Shown: piece after piece, positions 1-10,951 of the stretch
Layout of the letters: each line of letters opens with the position of its first letter
Position numbering within the stretch: the stretch's first letter is position 1
Source of the DNA: a virus
Lineage: Duplodnaviria > Heunggongvirae > Uroviricota > Caudoviricetes
Length of the DNA: 46,421 nucleotides
IMG/VR virus record: IMGVR_UViG_2541047773_000007
Reading direction: 5' to 3' (one strand)
Translations under genes and position numbers: made by a program
Notes under the pieces: generated by a model
The model's database searches: none
What the model saw: only the letters and a program-made list of their open reading frames with translations
Told to the model about the DNA's origin: nothing

Positions 1-1284
1 TTACAGACTTCTGGACGGTTGCGCAGCTCTTACAACATGTGGTTGATCTTCTGCGGCGTCTTGCAGCGCACTTAAATCACGGTCTTTCACTTCTGGCATT
101 TTCAGCGCAGAGATTAAACCAATCACAGAATATGCCATGATCATAATGGCGATCGGATACCAGGATTCCGTCATGGTGCAGAAAATCCCCGCCAGGATAG
201 GACCAAAACCGGAAGCGATAAGACCACCAATTTCTTTAGAAATAGCCATTCGGGTAAAGCGGTTTTTACAGCCGAACATTTCTGCCATGGTAATGTTTTC
301 CAGAGCAAATAATCCAAGCACCGCACAGTTATGAATCACAATCAGTGCAACCATAATGGTGCTCGGGGCATAGCTTTTATCTACGATGATAGAAAGCATT
401 GGCCATGCCAGCACAATCGCAGAGGTATTCATAATAATATACGGGATCCGGCGACCAATTTTATCGGATAACCAACCAAGGAACGGAATGGTCATAAAGC
501 CGAGAATCGAACTGATCATCAATGCATCTGTTGGAATTGCTTTGTTAAACAATAACGTCTGCACTAAATAGCCTGCAAGGAAAGTCTGAATTAAACCTGA
601 GTTACCAGCCTGACCAAAACGCAGCCCTGTTGCCAGCCAGAAGGATTTGCTCTGGAACATGCTACCAGCAGGTGCAGGTTTTGCTGTCGGTTGGTTGCTG
701 TCGTTAACCTTCTCAAAGACCGGGCTTTCTTTCAGATTCATACGCAACCAGATAGCAAAGACCATCACGACAACGCTCGCCAGGAAAGGTATACGCCATC
801 CCCACGCCAGCAGTTCCTCTTTACTGAGAATGAAGAACATAAAGGCCCAGATTGCCGTTGCGCTCAAGGTTCCGCAGTTAGTTCCCATAGCCACAAATGA
901 GGAGATAATTCCGCGCTTACCTTTTGGCGCATATTCCGCCAGCATCGTACCGGCACCGGAAATTTCCGCACCTGCACCCAACCCCTGAATAATACGCAGC
1001 GTCACCAGCAAGATGGGGGCAAAAACACCAATTTGTGCATAAGTCGGTAACACACCAATTAAGGTGGTACAGATCCCCATCATGGTGATGGTAATAAAGA
1101 GCACTTTTTTACGCCCTATTCTGTCGCCCATTTTGCCGAAAATAAATGCTCCGACAATACGTGCCACATAACCTGCACCATAGGTTCCCATTGCCAGAAT
1201 TAACGCCATTGCCGTTGATGATTCAGGAAAAAATATTTCATGAAACACTAACGCTGCGCCGAGCGAATATAACTGGAAATCCAT
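1..1284 (-). CDS. ydfJ: MFS metabolite:H+ symporter, apparently N-terminally truncated (YdfJ-like)
   Basis: 427-aa polytopic protein with sugar-transporter-like motifs (GKMGDRIGRK, WGWRIPF); N-terminus begins inside the first TM region compared with ShiA/KgtP-type relatives; lies directly next to a Qin-type prophage end. Confidence 0.6.
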   Translation of the reverse strand: MDFQLYSLGAALVFHEIFFPESSTAMALILAMGTYGAGYVARIVGAFIFGKMGDRIGRKKVLFITITMMGICTTLIGVLPTYAQIGVFAPILLVTLRIIQGLGAGAEISGAGTMLAEYAPKGKRGIISSFVAMGTNCGTLSATAIWAFMFFILSKEELLAWGWRIPFLASVVVMVFAIWLRMNLKESPVFEKVNDSNQPTAKPAPAGSMFQSKSFWLATGLRFGQAGNSGLIQTFLAGYLVQTLLFNKAIPTDALMISSILGFMTIPFLGWLSDKIGRRIPYIIMNTSAIVLAWPMLSIIVDKSYAPSTIMVALIVIHNCAVLGLFALENITMAEMFGCKNRFTRMAISKEIGGLIASGFGPILAGIFCTMTESWYPIAIMIMAYSVIGLISALKMPEVKDRDLSALQDAAEDQPHVVRAAQPSRSL

Positions 1285-2069
1285 AATTCACAGGTGTTTT
1301 TTCCCATCCTGTGGTTTCCTTGGCGTTTTCTAGGTTTTTTCAGATAGTTGCATTTTTTAAAAAGCATCCTAAGTTCGATCTCAGTGTCTATCTGGGGCCT
1401 ATTTCTGTCCCATATATGCCCCAAAAAAACTCCTCAACAGATAAGTAGTTTTTTCATGGAGTTACGCGTAAAATCAATAACGGCTGGAAATCATTCAATA
1501 CTCGCACTATCGAAAAATTTACCAGCCAACCGCAGCACGTTCTTGCATAAGGCGTGTCTGCGGTTTTTCAACTATTCAGATACATCACTCCCATCACATT
1601 CATTCCTCCGCATCAAAGGCATATAGGCTATATCACCTTGATATTTTTCTTCTTCAGATAAAAACTGTTATCTATGTATACTTTTAAACCCAATCCGTGT
1701 AGAGTCTCTGCATAAGATAGTTTGCAGTTGCCACTTCAGCTTGCGCCATAAACCGCCTGATTTTTGCCGCCATCTGTTAGCATTCCTGTATACCTGAAAC
1801 GACAATGTTTATCTACGAACTTTAAGAACACCCAGGATAAAAATTGTCAACTATATCATATATAACACATTACTAATTCGAGGCTATATGAACAGCATAC
1901 TGATAATCACTTCGCTCCTTATCATATTCAGCATTTTTAGTCATGCTCTAATAAAATTAGGGATTGGCATATCCAATAACCCAGACAAAACCGATGTATA
2001 AGTCAACATATCCTGAATCAGACATACAATATCGCAATGAAAATCAATAATATTTTAAGGAATATATTC

Positions 2070-2303
2070 ATGAAATCAAAAGACACCCTAAAGTGGTTCC
2101 CTGCGCAGCTTCCTGAAGTCAGAATTATCCTAGGGGATGCTGTAGTGGAAGTAGCAAAACAGGGAAGACCTATCAATACCAGAACATTGCTTGATTACAT
2201 TGAAGGAAACATAAAGAAAAAATCATGGCTGGATAACAAAGAATTATTACAAACAGCGATATCAGTTCTTAAAGACAACCAAAATTTAAATGGTAAAATG
2301 TAA
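2070..2303 (+). CDS. ydfK: YdfK/YnaE-family cold-shock-induced prophage protein
   Basis: 77-aa product MKSKDTLKWFPAQLPEVRIILGDAVVEVAKQGRPINTRTLL... starting at the internal ATG of the 88-aa track ORF; matches recalled K-12 YdfK. Confidence 0.7.
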   Translation: MKSKDTLKWFPAQLPEVRIILGDAVVEVAKQGRPINTRTLLDYIEGNIKKKSWLDNKELLQTAISVLKDNQNLNGKM

Positions 2304-2619
2304 TATAATAAACTTACTTCTTTATCATTTTTCCACTTTAACAACATTTTGCTCCACTTTTCCACGACCAAACAACTTGAAATCTGGTTAAAATAACACG
2401 CAACACTATTCTTCTTCCTTGAGTCCGCCCGGAACTCGAAAAACAAACCGAGTTAAAGCTATTTTTCACAAAATCGATTTTGGGTCTCACCAAAATTACG
2501 GGGTTGCATACGCATTCGTTTATTTTCGAACGTGTACATACAAACATGCACAAAAATAATCAAAATTATTTTCTGAGATGCATTATGATATGAACACCAA
2601 TTTCGTATAGAGTCTCACT

Positions 2620-3210
2620 ATGTCTCGAATTTTTGCTTACTGTCGGATATCAACGCTGGATCAGACCACCGAAAATCAACGCCGGGAAATCGAAAGTGCA
2701 GGTTTTAAAATCAAACCTCAGCAAATAATCGAAGAACACATTAGCGGCTCAGCAGCAACCAGTGAGCGTCCTGGTTTTAACCGGTTGCTTGCTCGCCTGA
2801 AATGTGGTGATCAATTGATTGTGACAAAACTGGATCGCCTTGGTTGTAATGCAATGGATATCAGGAAAACAGTGGAACAACTGACCGAAACAGGTATCAG
2901 AGTGCATTGCTTAGCATTGGGGGGCATTGACCTGACCAGTCCAACAGGAAAAATGATGATGCAAGTAATTTCAGCAGTCGCTGAATTTGAACGAGACCTT
3001 TTACTTGAACGCACTCATTCCGGGATAGTAAGAGCCCGGGGCGCAGGGAAACGTTTTGGTCGACCACCTGTGTTAAATGAAGAACAGAAACAGGTGGTAT
3101 TCGAACGGATTAAGTCAGGTGTAAGTATAAGTGCCATTGCCCGGGAATTCAAAACCTCGCGGCAAACCATTTTAAGAGCCAAAGCAAAACTTCAGACACC
3201 TGACATATAA
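2620..3210 (+). CDS. pin: Serine recombinase, Pin/Gin/Hin-family DNA invertase
   Basis: 196 aa; N-terminal catalytic region [14 protein letters not shown] (Ser nucleophile), resolvase core, C-terminal HTH; Pin-like size. Confidence 0.9.
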
Positions 3211-3437
3211 AAAATAATCTCGGTGTGAGATGCCTTACGTCTTCCAAGCCCCCTTCCTTGCCGTAAATGGAAAGATACATCTAATTATAGAATTTATATG
3301 TTTTACCCTACGGCAGTGCTGGCCATTCAATATCCTGTGCAGTTGACGTATCAACACGGTTCAGCAACACCCGATACTTCTTCCAGGCTTCCCGCAACGA
3401 GGTTTCTTCCTCCGTTGCATATACAGCTCACCTTTTT

Positions 3438-3746
3438 TCACCCACGATTAACCAACAGCCAGACCAGCAGACACGCCACCACCGGCACAGCAAAATCCAT
3501 CAGGCTTGCCACATCCCACGCGCGCGGATCAAAACCGCCCCACCACGGCATATTCATTCGCTTGCCATGCCCGAACATTTCAATCCAGCGATATTCTGCC
3601 TGGGTGTGTTCACGCGCAATGAAGAACGTACAACCGGCTATCGCCCCGTAAGCCCAGTTCCCGGTAAAAAGACCAATCAGTAGCTGCGCAGCCACAGCAC
3701 AAAGCGCATGAAGGAAAGGTGTTATATCCATTTTCATCCTACCCAA
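3438..3746 (-). CDS. Small hydrophobic protein of unknown function
   Basis: 102-aa ORF with two strongly hydrophobic segments between the tail-fibre genes and pin; no recognised domain. Confidence 0.4.
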   Translation of the reverse strand: MGRMKMDITPFLHALCAVAAQLLIGLFTGNWAYGAIAGCTFFIAREHTQAEYRWIEMFGHGKRMNMPWWGGFDPRAWDVASLMDFAVPVVACLLVWLLVNRG

Positions 3747-3773
3747 TAAAACGGGGCGCTCGGCCCCTTAATA

Positions 3774-4814
3774 TTATTTAGACGCAAGCGCCGCCTCAAT
3801 TGCAGATAATCTTTGTCTTAATTCTGCGTTTTCTTCTTCCAGTGCTGTTATTCTGTCGTCTGACTCTCTGGCTACCTGAACAAGCAAGCCAGTAACACCA
3901 GAATAATCTACTGTGTAATAACGTTCACCTTCTTCACCTTCCGATCCGCTTGCACCGTCCTGATATTTCATTGCGGAACCTACAACTTCTGGGATTGCTT
4001 CCAGAGCTTCCTGTGCAATGACACCAGCATAGGGCATACCGTTTTCTTTAAGCGTGTATGTATAGCCGTTCATTTTACGGATGCGGTCGGTTGCATTATC
4101 GATCACCTGAATGTTGTCTTTCAGATCCCGGTCGGAATGCTGGTTAAATGCGGTGGCATGACATGCACCATTAACGCTTAACATATAGGTGTTATCGGTA
4201 TTTTTCTGCGCATAGAACATATAAGCGCCACCATCAACACCGACTTCATAAACAACAGGACGGCTGGTGTTGCCCCACAATTGAGCAGTAACACCAGCAT
4301 AAGCGGTTCCCTGTGTGTTTAATGTCATGGTTGACCCATGATTGGCATATTTGATCTGTAATGTGTCGGTGTAATCAAATTTAATAAGCGCGTTACTTCC
4401 ACGCTTGCTGTATGACATAAGGCAGTTACCCATTTTGAGGTATCCGCTGTCACCGGGAAAAATCATCGTACCGCCATAAAGGTTGGTAAAGTCCCAGCAA
4501 ATGTTTGTCCCGTTATCGTTCAGGTTAAGGCGCGCCATTGCGTTACCTGGACTGTCTATCCATTTTTTGAGGTATAGTTCGCAATACGCATCCTCAACAC
4601 CTGCCGTCCTGTGAGTTGAGCGGAGTTTTCTCCCAAATATAGCTCCGCTAGTTGGCAATACCTGCTGATACCATGAAGCAGACCAGTCACCAACGATTTC
4701 ATCTTTGCTGTCTACATATAATTTTGTTGCGTAGCTTCCTTGATCGTTTTTTAATTTGCTAACGTCGGATTTTAGCGTTTTGATGTCATCAGGAATTACT
4801 GTCGATGTAGCCAT
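3774..4814 (-). CDS. Tail-fibre/tailspike-like protein with C-terminal intramolecular chaperone (peptidase S74-like) domain
   Basis: 346 aa; C-terminus DRDLKDNIQVIDNATDRIRKMNGYTYTLKENGMPYAGVIAQEALEAIPEVV...RITALEEENAELRQRL is typical of auto-cleaving chaperone domains of phage fibres and endosialidases. Confidence 0.7.
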   Translation of the reverse strand: MATSTVIPDDIKTLKSDVSKLKNDQGSYATKLYVDSKDEIVGDWSASWYQQVLPTSGAIFGRKLRSTHRTAGVEDAYCELYLKKWIDSPGNAMARLNLNDNGTNICWDFTNLYGGTMIFPGDSGYLKMGNCLMSYSKRGSNALIKFDYTDTLQIKYANHGSTMTLNTQGTAYAGVTAQLWGNTSRPVVYEVGVDGGAYMFYAQKNTDNTYMLSVNGACHATAFNQHSDRDLKDNIQVIDNATDRIRKMNGYTYTLKENGMPYAGVIAQEALEAIPEVVGSAMKYQDGASGSEGEEGERYYTVDYSGVTGLLVQVARESDDRITALEEENAELRQRLSAIEAALASK

Positions 4815-4823
4815 TTTTCTTCC

Positions 4824-5105
4824 TCACATCCAGCCACGAAGTTGATGCTCAACAGCAACCACGTATTCATCGAATAATGACGATATTTGCGAATCATTAA
4901 TGATGCGCACGTTTACAAAATATCCGTCTTCCTTAACACATACCGGTTCGCCATCTTCAGTCAGTTCTCCGGTTTCTTTGTACACGTTACCTATCACGTC
5001 AATAAGAATATCATCCTGCATCGACTCGTCATCATAATAGCCAGTGCTATCCATAAAGGCCGAAAAGTCGGCCCTGTCGGCAAATTTGAGTGTTAAATCT
5101 TTCAT
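4824..5105 (-). CDS. Hypothetical acidic protein in tail-fibre operon
   Basis: 93-aa ORF translationally coupled (ATGA overlap) to the stf stop; acidic; no recognised motif. Confidence 0.45.
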   Translation of the reverse strand: MKDLTLKFADRADFSAFMDSTGYYDDESMQDDILIDVIGNVYKETGELTEDGEPVCVKEDGYFVNVRIINDSQISSLFDEYVVAVEHQLRGWM

Positions 5106-7483
5106 TAGATTGACTCCCCCACCTGAGCATCAGTCAATGCCTTGTGCCATATTCTGAAATTCCTGACATGACCAAATAAATGACGTAACCCGGCTGTAGT
5201 CTGGCCTCCAATACGGATAATTGCGGTGTTCTGAATACAGGACCATGTGGTTTTTGTTTCGCTGGATATATGCCCGTTACTTACTGAGCACGTAGACTGC
5301 TCTGACTTTACACGCATCCCCATAACCATTTTTTCAAGCGATGCGTTTTCGTTTACCCGTCTGTTAGCTCCTCCAATATCGCAATAAGGAAATCCGTCGT
5401 AATCTGTTGAACGACCGAAGCCAAGAATAATAGCCGCTCCGGTTTGATGACCGCCGGTATCAAAAACACGTGGCGCTGCATTTGGCGTTTTATACCAGTT
5501 CTTATGTACCTCACAAAGAACCGTAAAAGGAAGATTATAAAGATTATTCTTAATTGGAACTGTAACTATATCGCTTGCGCGGGTCGCCGCCGTCGCTCCT
5601 GATATAATAAAAGATGATACACAAGGCCCATCTTCTACTTGTGGGGTGGCCAGATAAATATAGTCACCAGATACGGTTGCCCCGCTCTGCTTAGGAGAAT
5701 ACTGTATCTGAGAGCCTATTTTTAACTCCCCATCAATTGCCTGAATTGTTGCCTCTGCAAAAATCCATCCGGTAGCTTCGTCCTTTCTGACTCTCGCTGT
5801 AATCCTTGAGGCAGCACCGCCTGTCATATTAATTTCAAGCGTTTGTGTATCAATATACGCATCACCAAGAAAAGTTGTTGCGCTACCGTCATATTTATCA
5901 AACCGGATACGCAACCTTACCTGCAGTTCTGTTTTAAAACGACATGAGGTTGTCACGTGTTTATTATCGCCTGAGACATCAACTGACTTTGTTGCAGCAA
6001 TTGATGCCATATTAATGGCTGAGGTTTGCCCAATCAGAGAATCGTTGCAGACAAACTTTCCATAGGTAAAACCAAAATTATCCGTCCCTGTTTCGGGCAC
6101 ATCCATATTTGACGATCGCCCCCAACTGGCAGGGCTTTCCGAATTGAGCATGTAGTTTGTTCTTTGCCCCTCAATAAGCAGGCCATCACGTTCAAATCGT
6201 GGCTCGTCAATGGCAGCCTCTGTCAGCACACCAGATTTGTTAATATAGGTTGCTTTCGATGCACGTTTAAACTTAACAATCTTGTCGCCAGGCATCGTTA
6301 TTTCATCGTCACCAATAACAATTTTTTTATATGACGGCGAAAAGCCCGTAATCATATCCAGCGAATCGTTAAATGGTATCCACACATCAGGCAGCGGCTG
6401 TAAGACATATTTATACGGCTCCGCAGCCTGGCTTGCGTACTCTCTGGCTGCATCTTCGCTTGCTTTAGCTGCCGTCTGGCTTGCTGCCGATGCTTTCGCT
6501 GAGTTCGCAGCCGCTGTTTCGCTCACCTTTGCGTTGGTTTCACTGGTTTTTGCTGCTTTTTGACTGTTAGCTGATGCAGTGGCAGAAGCAGCCGCCGCGC
6601 TTGCAGAACTGGCTGCGGCACTCTCGCTTTGAGCCGCTGCATCCTGACTGCTTTTCGCCGCAGTTTCACTGGCTTTGGCATTCGTTTCGCTGGTCTTCGC
6701 TGCCGTCTGGCTGGACTTTGCGTTAGTTTCACTCGTCTTCGCAGCTTTCTGGCTGTTAGCCGTAGCAGTTGCTGATCCAGCTGCTGAAGTCGCAGAACCG
6801 GCTGCCGCGCTCTCGCTTTGGGCTGCTGCAACCTGGCTGTTTTTTGCCGCAGTTTCACTGGCTTTAGCATTCGTTTCGCTGGTCTTCGCTGCCGTCTGGC
6901 TGGACTTTGCGTTGGTTTCGCTCGTCTTTGCGGCTGTCTCGCTATTTTTCGCGTTGGTTTCTGATTTTTTAGCTGCTGTTGCGGAGTTTGCCGATGCAGT
7001 CTGCGAGGCCGCTGCCGCCTGTGCGCTGTTAGCTGCATTCGTTTCTGAGGTTTTCGCCGCGTTCTTCGATGATGCCGCTGCAGTTTCGGATTTCTTTGCC
7101 GCCGCTGCGCTCTGAGAGGCGGCTTCAGCGTTGCGTGCCGCTTCTTCCACCATTTCCTCAAAACGACGCAATGCCTCCGGCATGACATCATCTTCCGTCA
7201 TGGCACCGAGAAAATCATTCAGCGTACCTGGTCTGGAACCTTCATAGACGGTAATGGTTCCGGCATGTGAAGGCGGAAAACCTTCAACAAGCAGGATAAC
7301 GCTGTACTGGCCATACTCAACATCCATGCTGTAACGCCCGGCTTCATCCGGATTTTCAGAGGCCACCGTGTTCACCAGTACCGTGGTGCTGTTACGCTTT
7401 GCCTTCAGTTGAATAGTGCAGTTCTGTATTGGTTTTCCCGCACCATCTTTCAGCACACCTGAAATCTGTACTGCCATACTCAC
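5105..7483 (-). CDS. stf: Side tail fibre protein (Stf) with distinct C-terminal receptor-binding region
   Basis: 792 aa; N-terminus MSMAVQISGVLKDGAGKPIQNCTIQLKAKRNSTTV... is lambda Stf-like; long SETNAK/AAKTSETNAK repeat tract; C-terminal roughly 430 aa unrelated to lambda Stf. Confidence 0.85.
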   Translation of the reverse strand: MSMAVQISGVLKDGAGKPIQNCTIQLKAKRNSTTVLVNTVASENPDEAGRYSMDVEYGQYSVILLVEGFPPSHAGTITVYEGSRPGTLNDFLGAMTEDDVMPEALRRFEEMVEEAARNAEAASQSAAAAKKSETAAASSKNAAKTSETNAANSAQAAAASQTASANSATAAKKSETNAKNSETAAKTSETNAKSSQTAAKTSETNAKASETAAKNSQVAAAQSESAAAGSATSAAGSATATANSQKAAKTSETNAKSSQTAAKTSETNAKASETAAKSSQDAAAQSESAAASSASAAAASATASANSQKAAKTSETNAKVSETAAANSAKASAASQTAAKASEDAAREYASQAAEPYKYVLQPLPDVWIPFNDSLDMITGFSPSYKKIVIGDDEITMPGDKIVKFKRASKATYINKSGVLTEAAIDEPRFERDGLLIEGQRTNYMLNSESPASWGRSSNMDVPETGTDNFGFTYGKFVCNDSLIGQTSAINMASIAATKSVDVSGDNKHVTTSCRFKTELQVRLRIRFDKYDGSATTFLGDAYIDTQTLEINMTGGAASRITARVRKDEATGWIFAEATIQAIDGELKIGSQIQYSPKQSGATVSGDYIYLATPQVEDGPCVSSFIISGATAATRASDIVTVPIKNNLYNLPFTVLCEVHKNWYKTPNAAPRVFDTGGHQTGAAIILGFGRSTDYDGFPYCDIGGANRRVNENASLEKMVMGMRVKSEQSTCSVSNGHISSETKTTWSCIQNTAIIRIGGQTTAGLRHLFGHVRNFRIWHKALTDAQVGESI

Positions 7484-7537
7484 TCCACAAATAAAAAAGG
7501 CGCCATTTCTGGCGCCCGTATTGGGGTTATAAATATT

Positions 7538-10500
7538 TCAACGGATACTGATACCGGAAGCAGCTTTTTTGGTCACAATCACCGTACAGTCTGTGATGTT
7601 ACCTGCGCCCTGATTGCCTTTCTGGAAAATCTTAAACTCCAGAGTGACGTTACCACCACCACTCGGCATATCAATAACCGCACTGTAACTACCGGGAATG
7701 GCTCCTTTAGTTTCTCTGGATGCGATTAATACGCCATTTTTGCGAACTTCAAAACCATAACCCGTGTATCGCGTACCTCCCGGGTTATTACCGCTCCCCG
7801 GATCGTCATACGCCACACCGTTAAAAATAATGGGCGGAATAATGATTTGGCGGTCAAAGTTATGATCATCGTAAATGGTGACTGTAACCGTCCCGTTTGG
7901 TGTTTCCGTGTTACCCCACGTACCAGCCTTTTTCGGGAATGATTTGGATACAGTTTTAACGAAGTCACCTCTGACCTGGTTCGCCTCCAGCATGCCCTTA
8001 ATCGTACAGTTTTCATTTACCGTGACATTATTGAGCGTCCCGGAGTTCGCATTCACGTTACCGCTGATATCGGCATTTTTCGCCGTCAGCCGCCCGTCCG
8101 GTGTCAGGGAAAATACCGGAGGATTGCCGCCACTGGTAATGGTGGGAGCCGTCAGATACTTCAGGAACACTTCGTTCATGAATATCTGGTTGCCCTGCGC
8201 CACAAACATCGGCGTTTCATTCCCGTTTGCCGGGTCAATAAACGCGATACGGTTAGCGGCAACCAGGAACTGGCTCAGTTTGCCTTCCTCCGTATCCTCC
8301 ATGCTGAGGCCAAGCCCCGCGACATAATGTTTGCCGTCTTTGGTCTGCTCAATTTTGACGCCCCACATGGCATTCCATTTATCGTTGGCGTCCTTCCACT
8401 CTTTCGAAAACTCCTCCAGTCTGCTGGCGTTATCCTCCGTCAGCTCGACTTTTTCCAGCAGCTCCTTGCCGAGATGGGATTCGGTTATCTTGCCTTTGAA
8501 AAAATCCAGGTAACCTTCCGCATCATCGCTCGCCCGACCGACGGCCTCCACGAATGCCGATTTGCCAACGGTGTTCACACTGCGGATGTAAAAATAATAA
8601 TCATGGCCCGGTTTGATATTGATACTGGCGGCTATCCAGTACAGCGCCGTACCAAGATAGCGGGCTGTGGTTTCAACCTGCCTGATATCGGTAATCCGCT
8701 TTTCCGAGAACCAGAACTCAAACTGTACCGTCGGATCATAAACCGCAAGATGCGGCGTGGCGGTTATCTGAAAATAGCCCGGCGTCAGCTCAATCCGCGA
8801 TGGTGCTGCCGGTGCGGCAATCCGGAACGATACCGACGCCGGATCGCCCTGCTGCCCCCACGCATTTACCGCCCGGACTGTCAGACTGTAATTTCCCAGA
8901 GCCAGCTGCCTGAAGCGGTATGTGGTTTCCGTCGTCCGGGCCGTGCTGACCAGCCGCTCACTGCCGTCATCCGCTGCCACGGTCAGGCGAAGCATAAAGC
9001 TCACGCCCTTCACCACCTTCGGCGTATCCCAGCGCGCCAGCACCTGGTATTCCCCGCTGTCTGCGGTGACTTCGGCGGTCAGGTGCTGCACCGCTGGCGG
9101 CGTGACACCATTCACCGTGCCGCTCTGGTCGCCGTCAAAGTGCGCCCCGTTATCCACGATGGCTTCTTTTTCCGGTACATGCTGCACGGCAGTGATGGCA
9201 TACGTGCCGTCATCGTTCTCACGGATACTCACACAGCGGAACAGGCGCTGACGCAACGTCGGCAACTTCAGCCCCCACACACTGTATTCTGCAACGCCGT
9301 CAGGAACCCGATTCACTTTCACCTTAAGTCCGTCGGTGACGGACTGAACCTCCACGCTGACCGGATTACCACTTCCGTCAACCAGGCTTATCAGCGTGGT
9401 ACCGGAGGATGGCAGCGTGATTTCACGGTCGAGCGTCAGCGTCCGGGTCTGGCTGTTCACCGCCAGCACGCGACCACCGGTGCTGATACCGGCATAGTCA
9501 TCATCGCAGATTTCAATGACATCGCCCGGTACATGGCGAAGCCCTTCAGCACCCACGCTGAAATCCACGGTCTGCGTCTCCAGCAGTTCCGTTTTAATCA
9601 GCCACAGCCCGGCGCGGTGTGCCTGCCCCCGGCTGGTACAGCCAAAGGCATCCATCTTCGTGACATTACGACCGTAACGGGCAATGGCCTGCGTATCTTC
9701 AACAAGCTCTGTCGCCGTCTCCCAGCCGTTGTTCGGGTCAATCCAGTTCACCTCAACGGCATTATGGCGGTCCTTCAGGGCGCTGAAGCTGTAGCGGAAC
9801 GGCGCGCCATCATCCGGCATCACCACATTACTGCGGTTATAGGTCCACACCTTATCTGATGGTCGGTCCTGCACGAACGTCAGCGTCTGCCCGTTCCATA
9901 CCGGCATACAGCGCATCGCCGAGCAGAAATCACTGAGCACATCCCACGCCTTACGCTGCGTGGTCAGCCAGGCATTACAGGTGATGCGCGGCTCCGTGCC
10001 GCCAAAGCCGTCCGGCACCGACTGGTCGCAGTACTGGCCGATGACATACAGCGCCCATTTATCCACATCCGACGCACCAAGACGTTTTCCCATGCCGTAG
10101 CGCGGATGGGTCAGCATATCCCACAGACACCAGGCCATGTTGTTGCTGTATGCTGGCTTAAACGTTCCGTCCCAGATACCGCTGTATTGTCGCGTCTGCG
10201 GGTTATAGTTCGACGGCACCTGCAGAATGCGCCCGCGAAGATGATAATTACGACTCACCTGCTGGCTGCCGAACTGTTCCGAGTCCACCTGCACGCCAAC
10301 CAGTGCCGTGTTCGGGTAGCACTGTTTCACATCGATGATTTCGGTGTATGACGACCAGAGCGTTTTGTTCTGCAGCTGGTCTGTGGTGCTGTCCGGTGTC
10401 ATCCTGCGCATCCGGATATTAAACGGGCGCGGCGGCAGGTTACCCACCACCACCGATGCCAGATACTGTGAGGTGGTTTTGCCTTTAATGGTGATGTCTT

Positions 10501-10951
10501 TTTCCGTCACCCAGCCACCGTTACGCTGTATCTGAACCAGCAGGCGGACTTCCGACGGATTCCGGTCCCCCTTTGAGGTGGTTTCCACCAGTGCCTGCAC
10601 ACCGAAGGTAAAGCGCAGACGGTCGATGTTTGCAGACGTGATGGTCCGGGTAATCGGCGTGTCGTACTTCACTTCCGTACCCAGCACCGTCTCGGAGCCG
10701 GAGGATTCAAATCCCTCCGGCGGTGTCTGCTCCTGCTCACCTGCCCGGAAAACCACCGTGACACCGGAGATATTGGTATTCCCCTCACTGTCCAGCACTG
10801 GCGTACTGTTCAGCAGCACACTTTTTAATCCGTCCACCGGACCTTCAACCGGCCCTTCACTGATGGCGTCTATCACGCTCAGCATCTGCGTGGACTTCAG
10901 GTTGTCCTTCGCTTCGCGCGGGGTATGCCCCTTACTGCTGCCTTTACCCAT
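7538..10951 (-). CDS. J: Host specificity protein J (central tail fibre)
   Basis: 1137 aa, lambda gpJ-like throughout, located after tail assembly protein I. Confidence 0.95.

Follow-up and report, generated by a model that had tools for sequence, protein, structure and literature searches.

The pin Gene of a Lambdoid Prophage Is Best Read as an Orphaned Derivative of a Tn3-Family Resolvase Gene

Organization of the pin Locus

We analyzed the pin gene of a tailed-virus sequence (Caudoviricetes; IMG/VR record IMGVR_UViG_2541047773_000007), which encodes a small serine recombinase next to a set of tail-fibre genes. Throughout, the window is the whole 46-kb stretch of this record (46,421 nt), and all coordinates refer to it. 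The window starts with a 3' fragment of ydfJ (1–1284, minus strand), the Qin insertion site, at which the prophage is entered. Two genes of the right-end module of lambdoid prophages follow, ynfT (1888–2001, plus strand) and ydfK (2037–2303, plus strand), and an intergenic region of 316 bp separates ydfK from the pin open reading frame (ORF; 2620–3210, plus strand). As a preliminary description of this DNA had stated, the recombinase gene is complete; its product of 196 amino acids (aa) carries both a Resolvase domain (PF00239, 2.5e-36) and an HTH_7 domain (PF02796, 3.8e-11) in Pfam. The ynfT and ydfK genes constantly accompanied pin, and the gene order matched in Qin, Rac, LF82, CFT073, RM13322, and phage 2H10. 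On the other side, pin faces the 3' remnant of a tail-fibre assembly gene of the tfaQ/tfaR type (3308–3418, minus strand), which consists of the last 36 codons, is a partial tfa in the LF82 annotation, and has the translation of the TfaQ C-terminus. The tail-fibre module as a whole occupies 3438–7483 on the minus strand and contains a 102-aa membrane ORF (3438–3746), a gene for a fibre protein of 346 aa that has a Peptidase_S74 chaperone domain (3774–4814; Pfam), a 93-aa ORF (4824–5105), and the gene of the 792-aa side tail fibre Stf with a phage_tail_N domain (5105–7483; Pfam); J (7538–10951) comes after stf in the feature order. All four minus-strand ORFs of the module are whole and lie in a single orientation, in agreement with the preliminary description.

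The region 1285–5105 showed 99.9–100% identity with E. coli LF82 and several other genomes, in which the pin ORF is labeled pinQ. K-12 Qin, which is inserted at the same site (ydfJ) as the prophage in the window, matched it at 98.3% over 1–3419, with the match ending inside tfaQ, and the homology with Rac likewise broke off at 3419, inside tfa. To the right of this position, the window differs from the PinQ and PinR loci in carrying another, unrelated cassette, with the S74-chaperone fibre gene, and only the 36 tfa codons are left. Because the Qin homology stops at 3419 inside tfaQ, the tfa fragment at 3308–3418 is a recombination scar from the replacement of a fibre module.

Relationship of the pin Product to TnpR Resolvases

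The pin protein was identical to K-12 PinR of Rac at all 196 residues and to PinQ of Qin at 194 of the 196, and the same protein is encoded in the viable phages 2H10, mEp460, and Tritos. All of these share one module (ynfT/ynaM–ydfK/ynaE–pin, convergent with tfa), and in phage 2H10 pin sits between tfa and attP/int. The preliminary description had placed the protein in the Pin/Gin family of invertases, a label that did not hold up in comparison with its relatives. Identity to PinE of e14 was 38%, versus 84% to "resolvase" proteins of IncF plasmids and 75% to the Tn2502-associated TnpR of Yersinia pYV, whereas known Din-family invertases are roughly at least 60% identical to one another. The nearest nonidentical relatives (75–84%) were annotated as "resolvase" or "recombinase" and were found on IncF and other plasmids of Escherichia, Salmonella, Klebsiella, Providencia, Morganella, and Yersinia; chromosomal homologues in Shewanella, Erwinia, Photorhabdus, and others were also close. 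With the TnpR proteins of the Tn2501/Tn2502/Tn2503 group and the plasmid homologues, the pin protein shares its length, its domain order, and a nearly identical DNA-binding domain, unlike that of PinE, in which the GRPP arm and the recognition helix are essentially unchanged. With the Din family (Gin of Mu, Cin of P1, Hin, and PinE of e14), it shares the small serine recombinase fold and a phage location beside tail-fibre genes, but its DNA-binding helix is different; by score, its best match among solved structures was nevertheless Gin (105 bits, vs. 83 for gamma-delta resolvase). NCBIfam gave no help in classification, returning only sub-threshold matches (Mpi invertase, 85 bits vs. a cut-off of 272).

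The surroundings of the relatives also point to transposons, since these genes lie divergent from Tn3-family transposases with res-like arrays upstream. The Shewanella homologue (77%) is transcribed divergently from a Tn3-family transposase gene, whose intact product of 1033 aa has DDE_Tnp_Tn3 and DUF4158 domains, and the Yersinia pYV homologue lies beside arsCBRH with internally deleted transposase remnants upstream. The latter locus agrees with the published account of Tn2502, described as "tnpAR, degenerate" with a res site, Tn2502 and Tn2503 being class II transposons with tnpRA and res (PMC3316555). Transposase remnants were also observed upstream of the homologues in Photorhabdus and on one Oxalobacteraceae contig. 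A tblastn search with a TnpA query found no Tn3-family transposase in the window or at the other prophage loci. The block homologous to a res-tnpR cassette of plasmids and transposons spans approximately 2431–3250 (plus strand): in blastn searches against plasmids, 2563–3249 aligned at 70–85% identity, and in a global alignment with the IncF locus, recognizable homology reached left to about 2431. Past the stop codon, a possible Tn3-type terminal repeat (GGGG...ACGTAAG, minus strand, ~3230–3252) was seen by eye; it is too short to support a claim.

Proteins 99–100% identical to PinR are also encoded on short contigs of unrelated metagenome-assembled genomes (MAGs) labeled Alistipes, Draconibacterium, and Caldithrix, which are almost certainly contamination by E. 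coli or phage DNA. Such bin contamination calls for caution toward a published "widespread, even in trematodes" statement (PMC12529663).

The Upstream Region and Its Resemblance to res

To characterize the architecture of res, we aligned the 200 bp upstream of the start codon for nine relatives. At a fixed spacing from the start codon, these carried a 26-bp palindrome, TGT(C/A)CGAAA-N8-TTTCG(G/T)ACA, which spans −115 to −90. A second site, of 32 bp (−75 to −44), repeats these half-sites with 14 bp between them, and two more half-sites, at −34 and −21, surround a TATAAT −10 element. Judged by its position and its half-site sequence, this array is a res site, and by analogy with Tn3, the distal 26-bp element may be the crossover site. 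For comparison, the half-site of Tn3 and gamma-delta is TGTCYNNTA. The res of the IncF homologue lies around 69,430–69,545 of NZ_CP026494.1. In Erwinia oleae contig83 (1268–2652), two divergent resolvase genes border a region that has extra TGTACGAAA half-sites at −191, −160, and −137, beyond the standard set.

The upstream region of pin is homologous to that of the TnpR systems, and we scored it with a half-site weight matrix that drew on 36 examples from the relatives. With this matrix, the relatives (n = 9) scored 24.8–31.8 bits at site I and 15.5–31.4 bits at site II, whereas the best dimer in shuffled windows averaged 10.7 bits and never exceeded 16.4 bits. The equivalent of site I in the window (26 bp, 2507–2532, plus strand) reached only 4.0 bits, with five of nine matches kept in its left half, and the equivalent of site II (32 bp, 2547–2578, plus strand) reached 9.5 bits. 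In the equivalent of the promoter-proximal third element (2588–2609, plus strand), the half-sites scored −3.0 and 12.4 bits, the latter being the sole preserved half-site, TTTCGTATA, at 2601–2609; a −10-like TATGAT also survives at 2584–2589. No res-like dimer above chance was found in the 46 kb, including in a search for a second site that could pair with the upstream remnant. The stretch 2507–2609 is thus a homologue of res whose sites I and II have eroded to chance-level scores, with only the −10-like element and the proximal half-site surviving.

The intergenic stretch 2304–2590 was about 99% identical to that of the RM13322 locus, though the two pin coding sequences are ~10% apart. Mosaic recombination that broke near the start codon would account for this, as would constraint on the noncoding stretch. 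A perfect palindrome of 14 bp, CAAAATCGATTTTG, lies in the same intergenic region at about 2471–2484.

Substitutions at Catalytic and Regulatory Positions

At codon 76 (TGT, 2845–2847, plus strand), pin encodes Cys at the position of R71 of the Tn3 and gamma-delta resolvases, the last Arg of KLDRLGR. In the alignments, Arg occupied this position in Gin, gamma-delta resolvase, PinE, and all 11 relatives, and the IncF allele has CGT at codon 76. Among the 120 closest protein clusters, 114 had Arg and five had Cys, and all five were of the prophage type; K-12 PinQ has Cys76 too. The Cys clusters included a diverged allele (85% aa identity, 374 member sequences) that is found in RM13322 in the same prophage context. 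The other catalytic residues of Tn3 resolvase (Y6, R8, S10, and R68) are kept as Y7, R9, S11, and R73, and the equivalent of D36 is E39 clade-wide. In Tn3 resolvase, R71A and R71K abolished resolution in vivo and recombination in vitro, and single-strand cleavage was about 1000-fold lower (PMC2794168). Because these mutants lose recombination, we infer by analogy that catalysis was lost in PinQ/R. Inactivating substitutions in pin had been anticipated in the preliminary description as one way in which the apparent lack of an invertible segment would cease to be a puzzle, and we count Cys76 in place of the invariant Arg as such a change.

Two further substitutions lie at the R (2-3') interface, which resolvases need for assembly on res and whose residues have been named, with R2A/E56K mutants being blocked in resolution (PMC9943657). 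Of the set R2, R32, K54, and E56, the pin protein retains the first and third as R3 and R59, and the other two are replaced: codon 35 (CAA, 2722–2724, plus strand) encodes Gln at the gamma-delta R32 position, where the relatives have Arg, and codon 61 (AAA, 2800–2802, plus strand) encodes Lys at the E56 position, where they have Glu. Both Gln35 and Lys61 are common to the two prophage alleles, and Gln35 is a shared-derived change.

Evolutionary Rate and Distribution of pin

We counted derived replacements at positions conserved in outgroups and found 18–25 in the prophage lineage versus two in its IncF sister (binomial p = 4e-4 and 6e-6), an approximately ten-fold excess. The ratio of nonsynonymous to synonymous substitution rates (dN/dS) was also higher, at 0.37 between the two Cys76 alleles versus 0.05–0.10 among the resolvase relatives (Fisher p = 5e-4 to 5e-5). 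Because this value exceeds that of the relatives and is still below 1, constraint on the prophage lineage is relaxed yet present.

The element is ordinary and already known, and roughly every second complete E. coli genome carries it: pin-like DNA was detected in 2993 of the 5426 genomes examined, in 2752 of them at ≥80% coverage, with up to six copies per genome. Disrupted copies also occur, in Shigella flexneri and a single E. coli genome. In E. coli GCA_910593615.1 (602025–610615), a pin gene in prophage context has had its core, equivalent to ~2555–3175 of the window, replaced through recombination by the IncF plasmid allele, with flanks of the prophage type. The new core brings with it Arg76 and intact proximal res elements, and this mosaic is evidence that gene conversion has taken place between the plasmid and prophage copies.

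Search for an Invertible Segment

The preliminary description had reported no convincing pair of inverted crossover sites, and our searches extended this result from the vicinity of pin to the whole 46 kb. Within 1300–8000, the best inverted pairs were 18–31 nt long with 70–94% complementarity, lay within coding regions, and were unrelated to pin, and the full window contained no better pair. The Din-type core AAACCNNGGTTT, allowing ≤2 mismatches, had 16 matches in the window against 25 by chance and none in 2300–7500; over this same interval, which the preliminary description had singled out for scanning, no inverted pair rose above chance. The pix 16-mer of e14 likewise had no match above chance in the window. 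The locus therefore differs from Din systems, since 26-bp inverted crossover sites with the AAACC-NN-GGTTT core are missing. The AAACCGAG candidate of the preliminary description (2445–2452, plus strand) is not a crossover site: its best inverted 26-mer partner in 1300–8000 matched at 16 of 26 positions, compared with 16–19 of 26 in shuffled sequences, and the candidate falls at the left boundary of the cassette homology. We also considered a near-match of AAACCGAG, namely CTCGGTGT at 3219, just past the stop codon, as a possible flanking half-site, and the extended 26-mers were no better than shuffled ones.

The gene arrangement gave no sign of an invertible segment either. No alternative fibre C-terminus and no second, inverted tfa was found at the locus, where the fibre genes form one set that lies entirely on the minus strand, whereas Din systems have duplicated, inverted fibre or tfa cassettes. 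A further trait of Din systems is a Fis-dependent recombinational enhancer within the 5' part of the invertase gene, the Fis consensus being highly degenerate. In addition, pin is convergent with the fibre genes, whereas gin, cin, and pinE abut the segment and are transcribed away from it. The tfa fragment was examined as the remains of an inverted U'-type cassette, and this was rejected: it represents the normally oriented tfaQ/tfaR 3' end and sits where the Qin and Rac homology runs out. The 1.47-kb arrangement of ydfK and pin facing the 3' end of tfa was collinear in 2681 complete E. coli genomes, compared with the 2752 that carry full-length pin, and thus inversion polymorphism at the pin flanks is absent at the population level; a larger block that includes this fibre module was collinear in 168 genomes. 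Kirigo et al. (2025; PMC12529663) likewise found inversions in e14 only and none in Qin or Rac.

Further Features of the Fibre Region

The tfa junction of the window recurs in CFT073 at another insertion site (ssrA), and the conserved Tfa C-terminus seems to be a recombination junction for the exchange of fibre cassettes. The 102-aa ORF that separates the S74-chaperone fibre gene from the tfa remnant has predicted membrane character; it had no Pfam or NCBIfam match, is hypothetical in the LF82 and CFT073 annotations, and could serve in lysogenic conversion or exclusion. The shaft region of stf (~6400–7100, minus strand) contains a long, repeated stretch rich in Ala, Ser, Thr, and Lys (AAKTSETNAKSSQTAAKTSETNAKASETAAK), which yields long spurious ORFs on both strands.

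Origin and Possible Function of pin

Taken together, the comparisons are best read as identifying the pin gene as PinR/PinQ, an orphaned derivative of a Tn3-family (Tn2501/Tn2502-like) TnpR resolvase gene, and not as a Gin/Hin/Cin/Pin-type invertase gene. We propose that a res-tnpR cassette of ~0.8 kb was captured by lambdoid phages in the accessory region that separates the tail-fibre genes from the attachment site, and that an invertible fibre segment never existed at this locus; none would be visible because pin is not a Din-family invertase gene. The transposase is gone, the ancestral substrate, a multi-subsite res immediately upstream of pin, has decayed, and the protein has lost one catalytic arginine (Cys76) together with two regulatory-interface residues (Gln35 and Lys61). 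With res decayed and these residues gone, the pin product most likely catalyzes no rearrangement of its own prophage. Because the DNA-binding domain is unchanged, any leftover activity would probably be DNA binding, regulation, or very weak recombination. We therefore consider it likely that PinQ/R has no substrate in cis and exerts little or no catalysis, its residual role, if any, being DNA binding or regulation. Among the three options raised in the preliminary description, that of a relic has the most support from the sequence; action in trans has a published claim in its favor, and crossover sites overlooked in cis found no support, none scoring above chance.

Several observations weigh against so strong a loss of function. 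The ORF is intact and 99–100% identical in more than 2,000 E. coli genomes and in the viable phages 2H10, mEp460, and Tritos, the diverged Cys76 allele is also intact, and dN/dS is below 1; some function is probably retained by PinQ/R. The Tn3 R71 mutants were described as "not inert" (PMC2794168), and by analogy, a Cys76 enzyme may catalyze weakly. The half-site matrix reflects the relatives and not binding data for PinQ/R themselves. Finally, overproduced K-12 PinQ raised the inverted form of the 1797-bp e14 P segment from ~30% to 88%, and deletion of pinQ sensitized K-12 to phage T2 (Kirigo et al. 2025; PMC12529663).

One way to accommodate retention of the gene, which we regard as possible but unlikely, is that the Cys76/Gln35/Lys61 lineage is a resolvase that lambdoid phages domesticated into a noncatalytic or barely catalytic DNA-binding factor modulating other recombinases or expression. 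Such a factor might, for example, bias the PinE-catalyzed inversion of Din-type segments during phage attack without any strand exchange of its own. If this were true, the published inversion of e14 by PinQ would be an indirect effect.

Direct action in trans, as proposed in the K-12 PinQ paper, seems to us rather doubtful. According to that proposal, PinQ/PinR is an active invertase on Din-type sites elsewhere, namely the e14 P segment, and switches tail-fibre-like genes, which yields an anti-phage chimeric protein. Besides the overproduction result, T2 survivors carried the 1797-bp inversion, which was reported to be protective against this phage, survival dropped on deletion of pinQ, and the effect was abolished by deletion of stfP, stfE, or e14 (PMC12529663); the protein encoded in the window is only two residues apart from K-12 PinQ. 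However, deletion of pinE alone locked the P segment despite intact pinQ and pinR (PMC12529663), which argues that PinQ/R at native levels is unable to invert it and that PinE may be the catalyst in all of the assays. Moreover, K-12 PinQ has Cys76 as well, and the pix sites scored −18.5 and −16.2 bits with the half-site model of the clade, the DNA-binding domain of PinQ/R being TnpR-like and unlike that of PinE. The distributions also disagree, since a full-length K-12-type e14 P segment with pinE was present in 170 of the 5426 genomes, whereas pin was present in ~2750. The LF82 locus and the window share 99.9% identity, and in LF82 the icd site, the one site examined there, is occupied by a lambdoid prophage and not by e14, although a Din-type target in trans may lie elsewhere in the source genome. 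The icd site of LF82 (1173160–1214000) holds a full lambdoid prophage, with ybcK (a large serine recombinase gene), emrE, an ompC-like porin gene, and iss as cargo.

It is very unlikely that pin encodes a working resolvase that acts on a co-evolved, diverged upstream res, for example between copies in different prophages or on replicating phage DNA. In favor of this reading, genomes carry up to six pin copies, and the stretch 2304–2590 hardly varies between Qin, Rac, and the RM13322 locus, including where the coding sequence is ~10% apart; recent spread together with mosaic recombination would explain this invariance just as well. The protein has the recognition helix and the GRPP arm of relatives with canonical sites, and its specificity should therefore not have shifted. 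The left half of site I matches at only five of nine positions, neither dimer scores above chance, and the catalytic Arg as well as two R-interface residues are replaced. An invertase acting in cis on overlooked crossover sites, for instance in the 3' part of stf or tfa, is suggested by the nearby tail-fibre genes and the adjoining tfa fragment, but it is already largely refuted and hardly credible given the lack of above-chance inverted repeats, Din-type cores, or clade-specific dimer sites in the window, the convergent orientation of pin (unlike gin or pinE), the single set of fibre and tfa sequences, the collinearity in 168 genomes for the fibre module and 2681 for the pin flanks, and the explanation of the tfa fragment as a scar at the end of Qin homology (3419).

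Significance for the PinQ/PinR Family

The name "DNA invertase" in annotation pipelines and papers is given by analogy with PinE, whereas the sequence points to a decayed transposon resolvase; as far as we could find in the searchable literature, neither the resolvase ancestry nor the Arg-to-Cys change has been discussed. Given descent from a resolvase, it would be pointless to hunt for an invertible segment beside pin. A recently proposed anti-phage mechanism rests on PinQ as the catalyst of e14 inversion, and three findings combine to make that claim directly testable: Cys in place of the catalytic Arg, pix sites that do not fit those expected for this clade, and the outcome of pinE deletion in the same paper.

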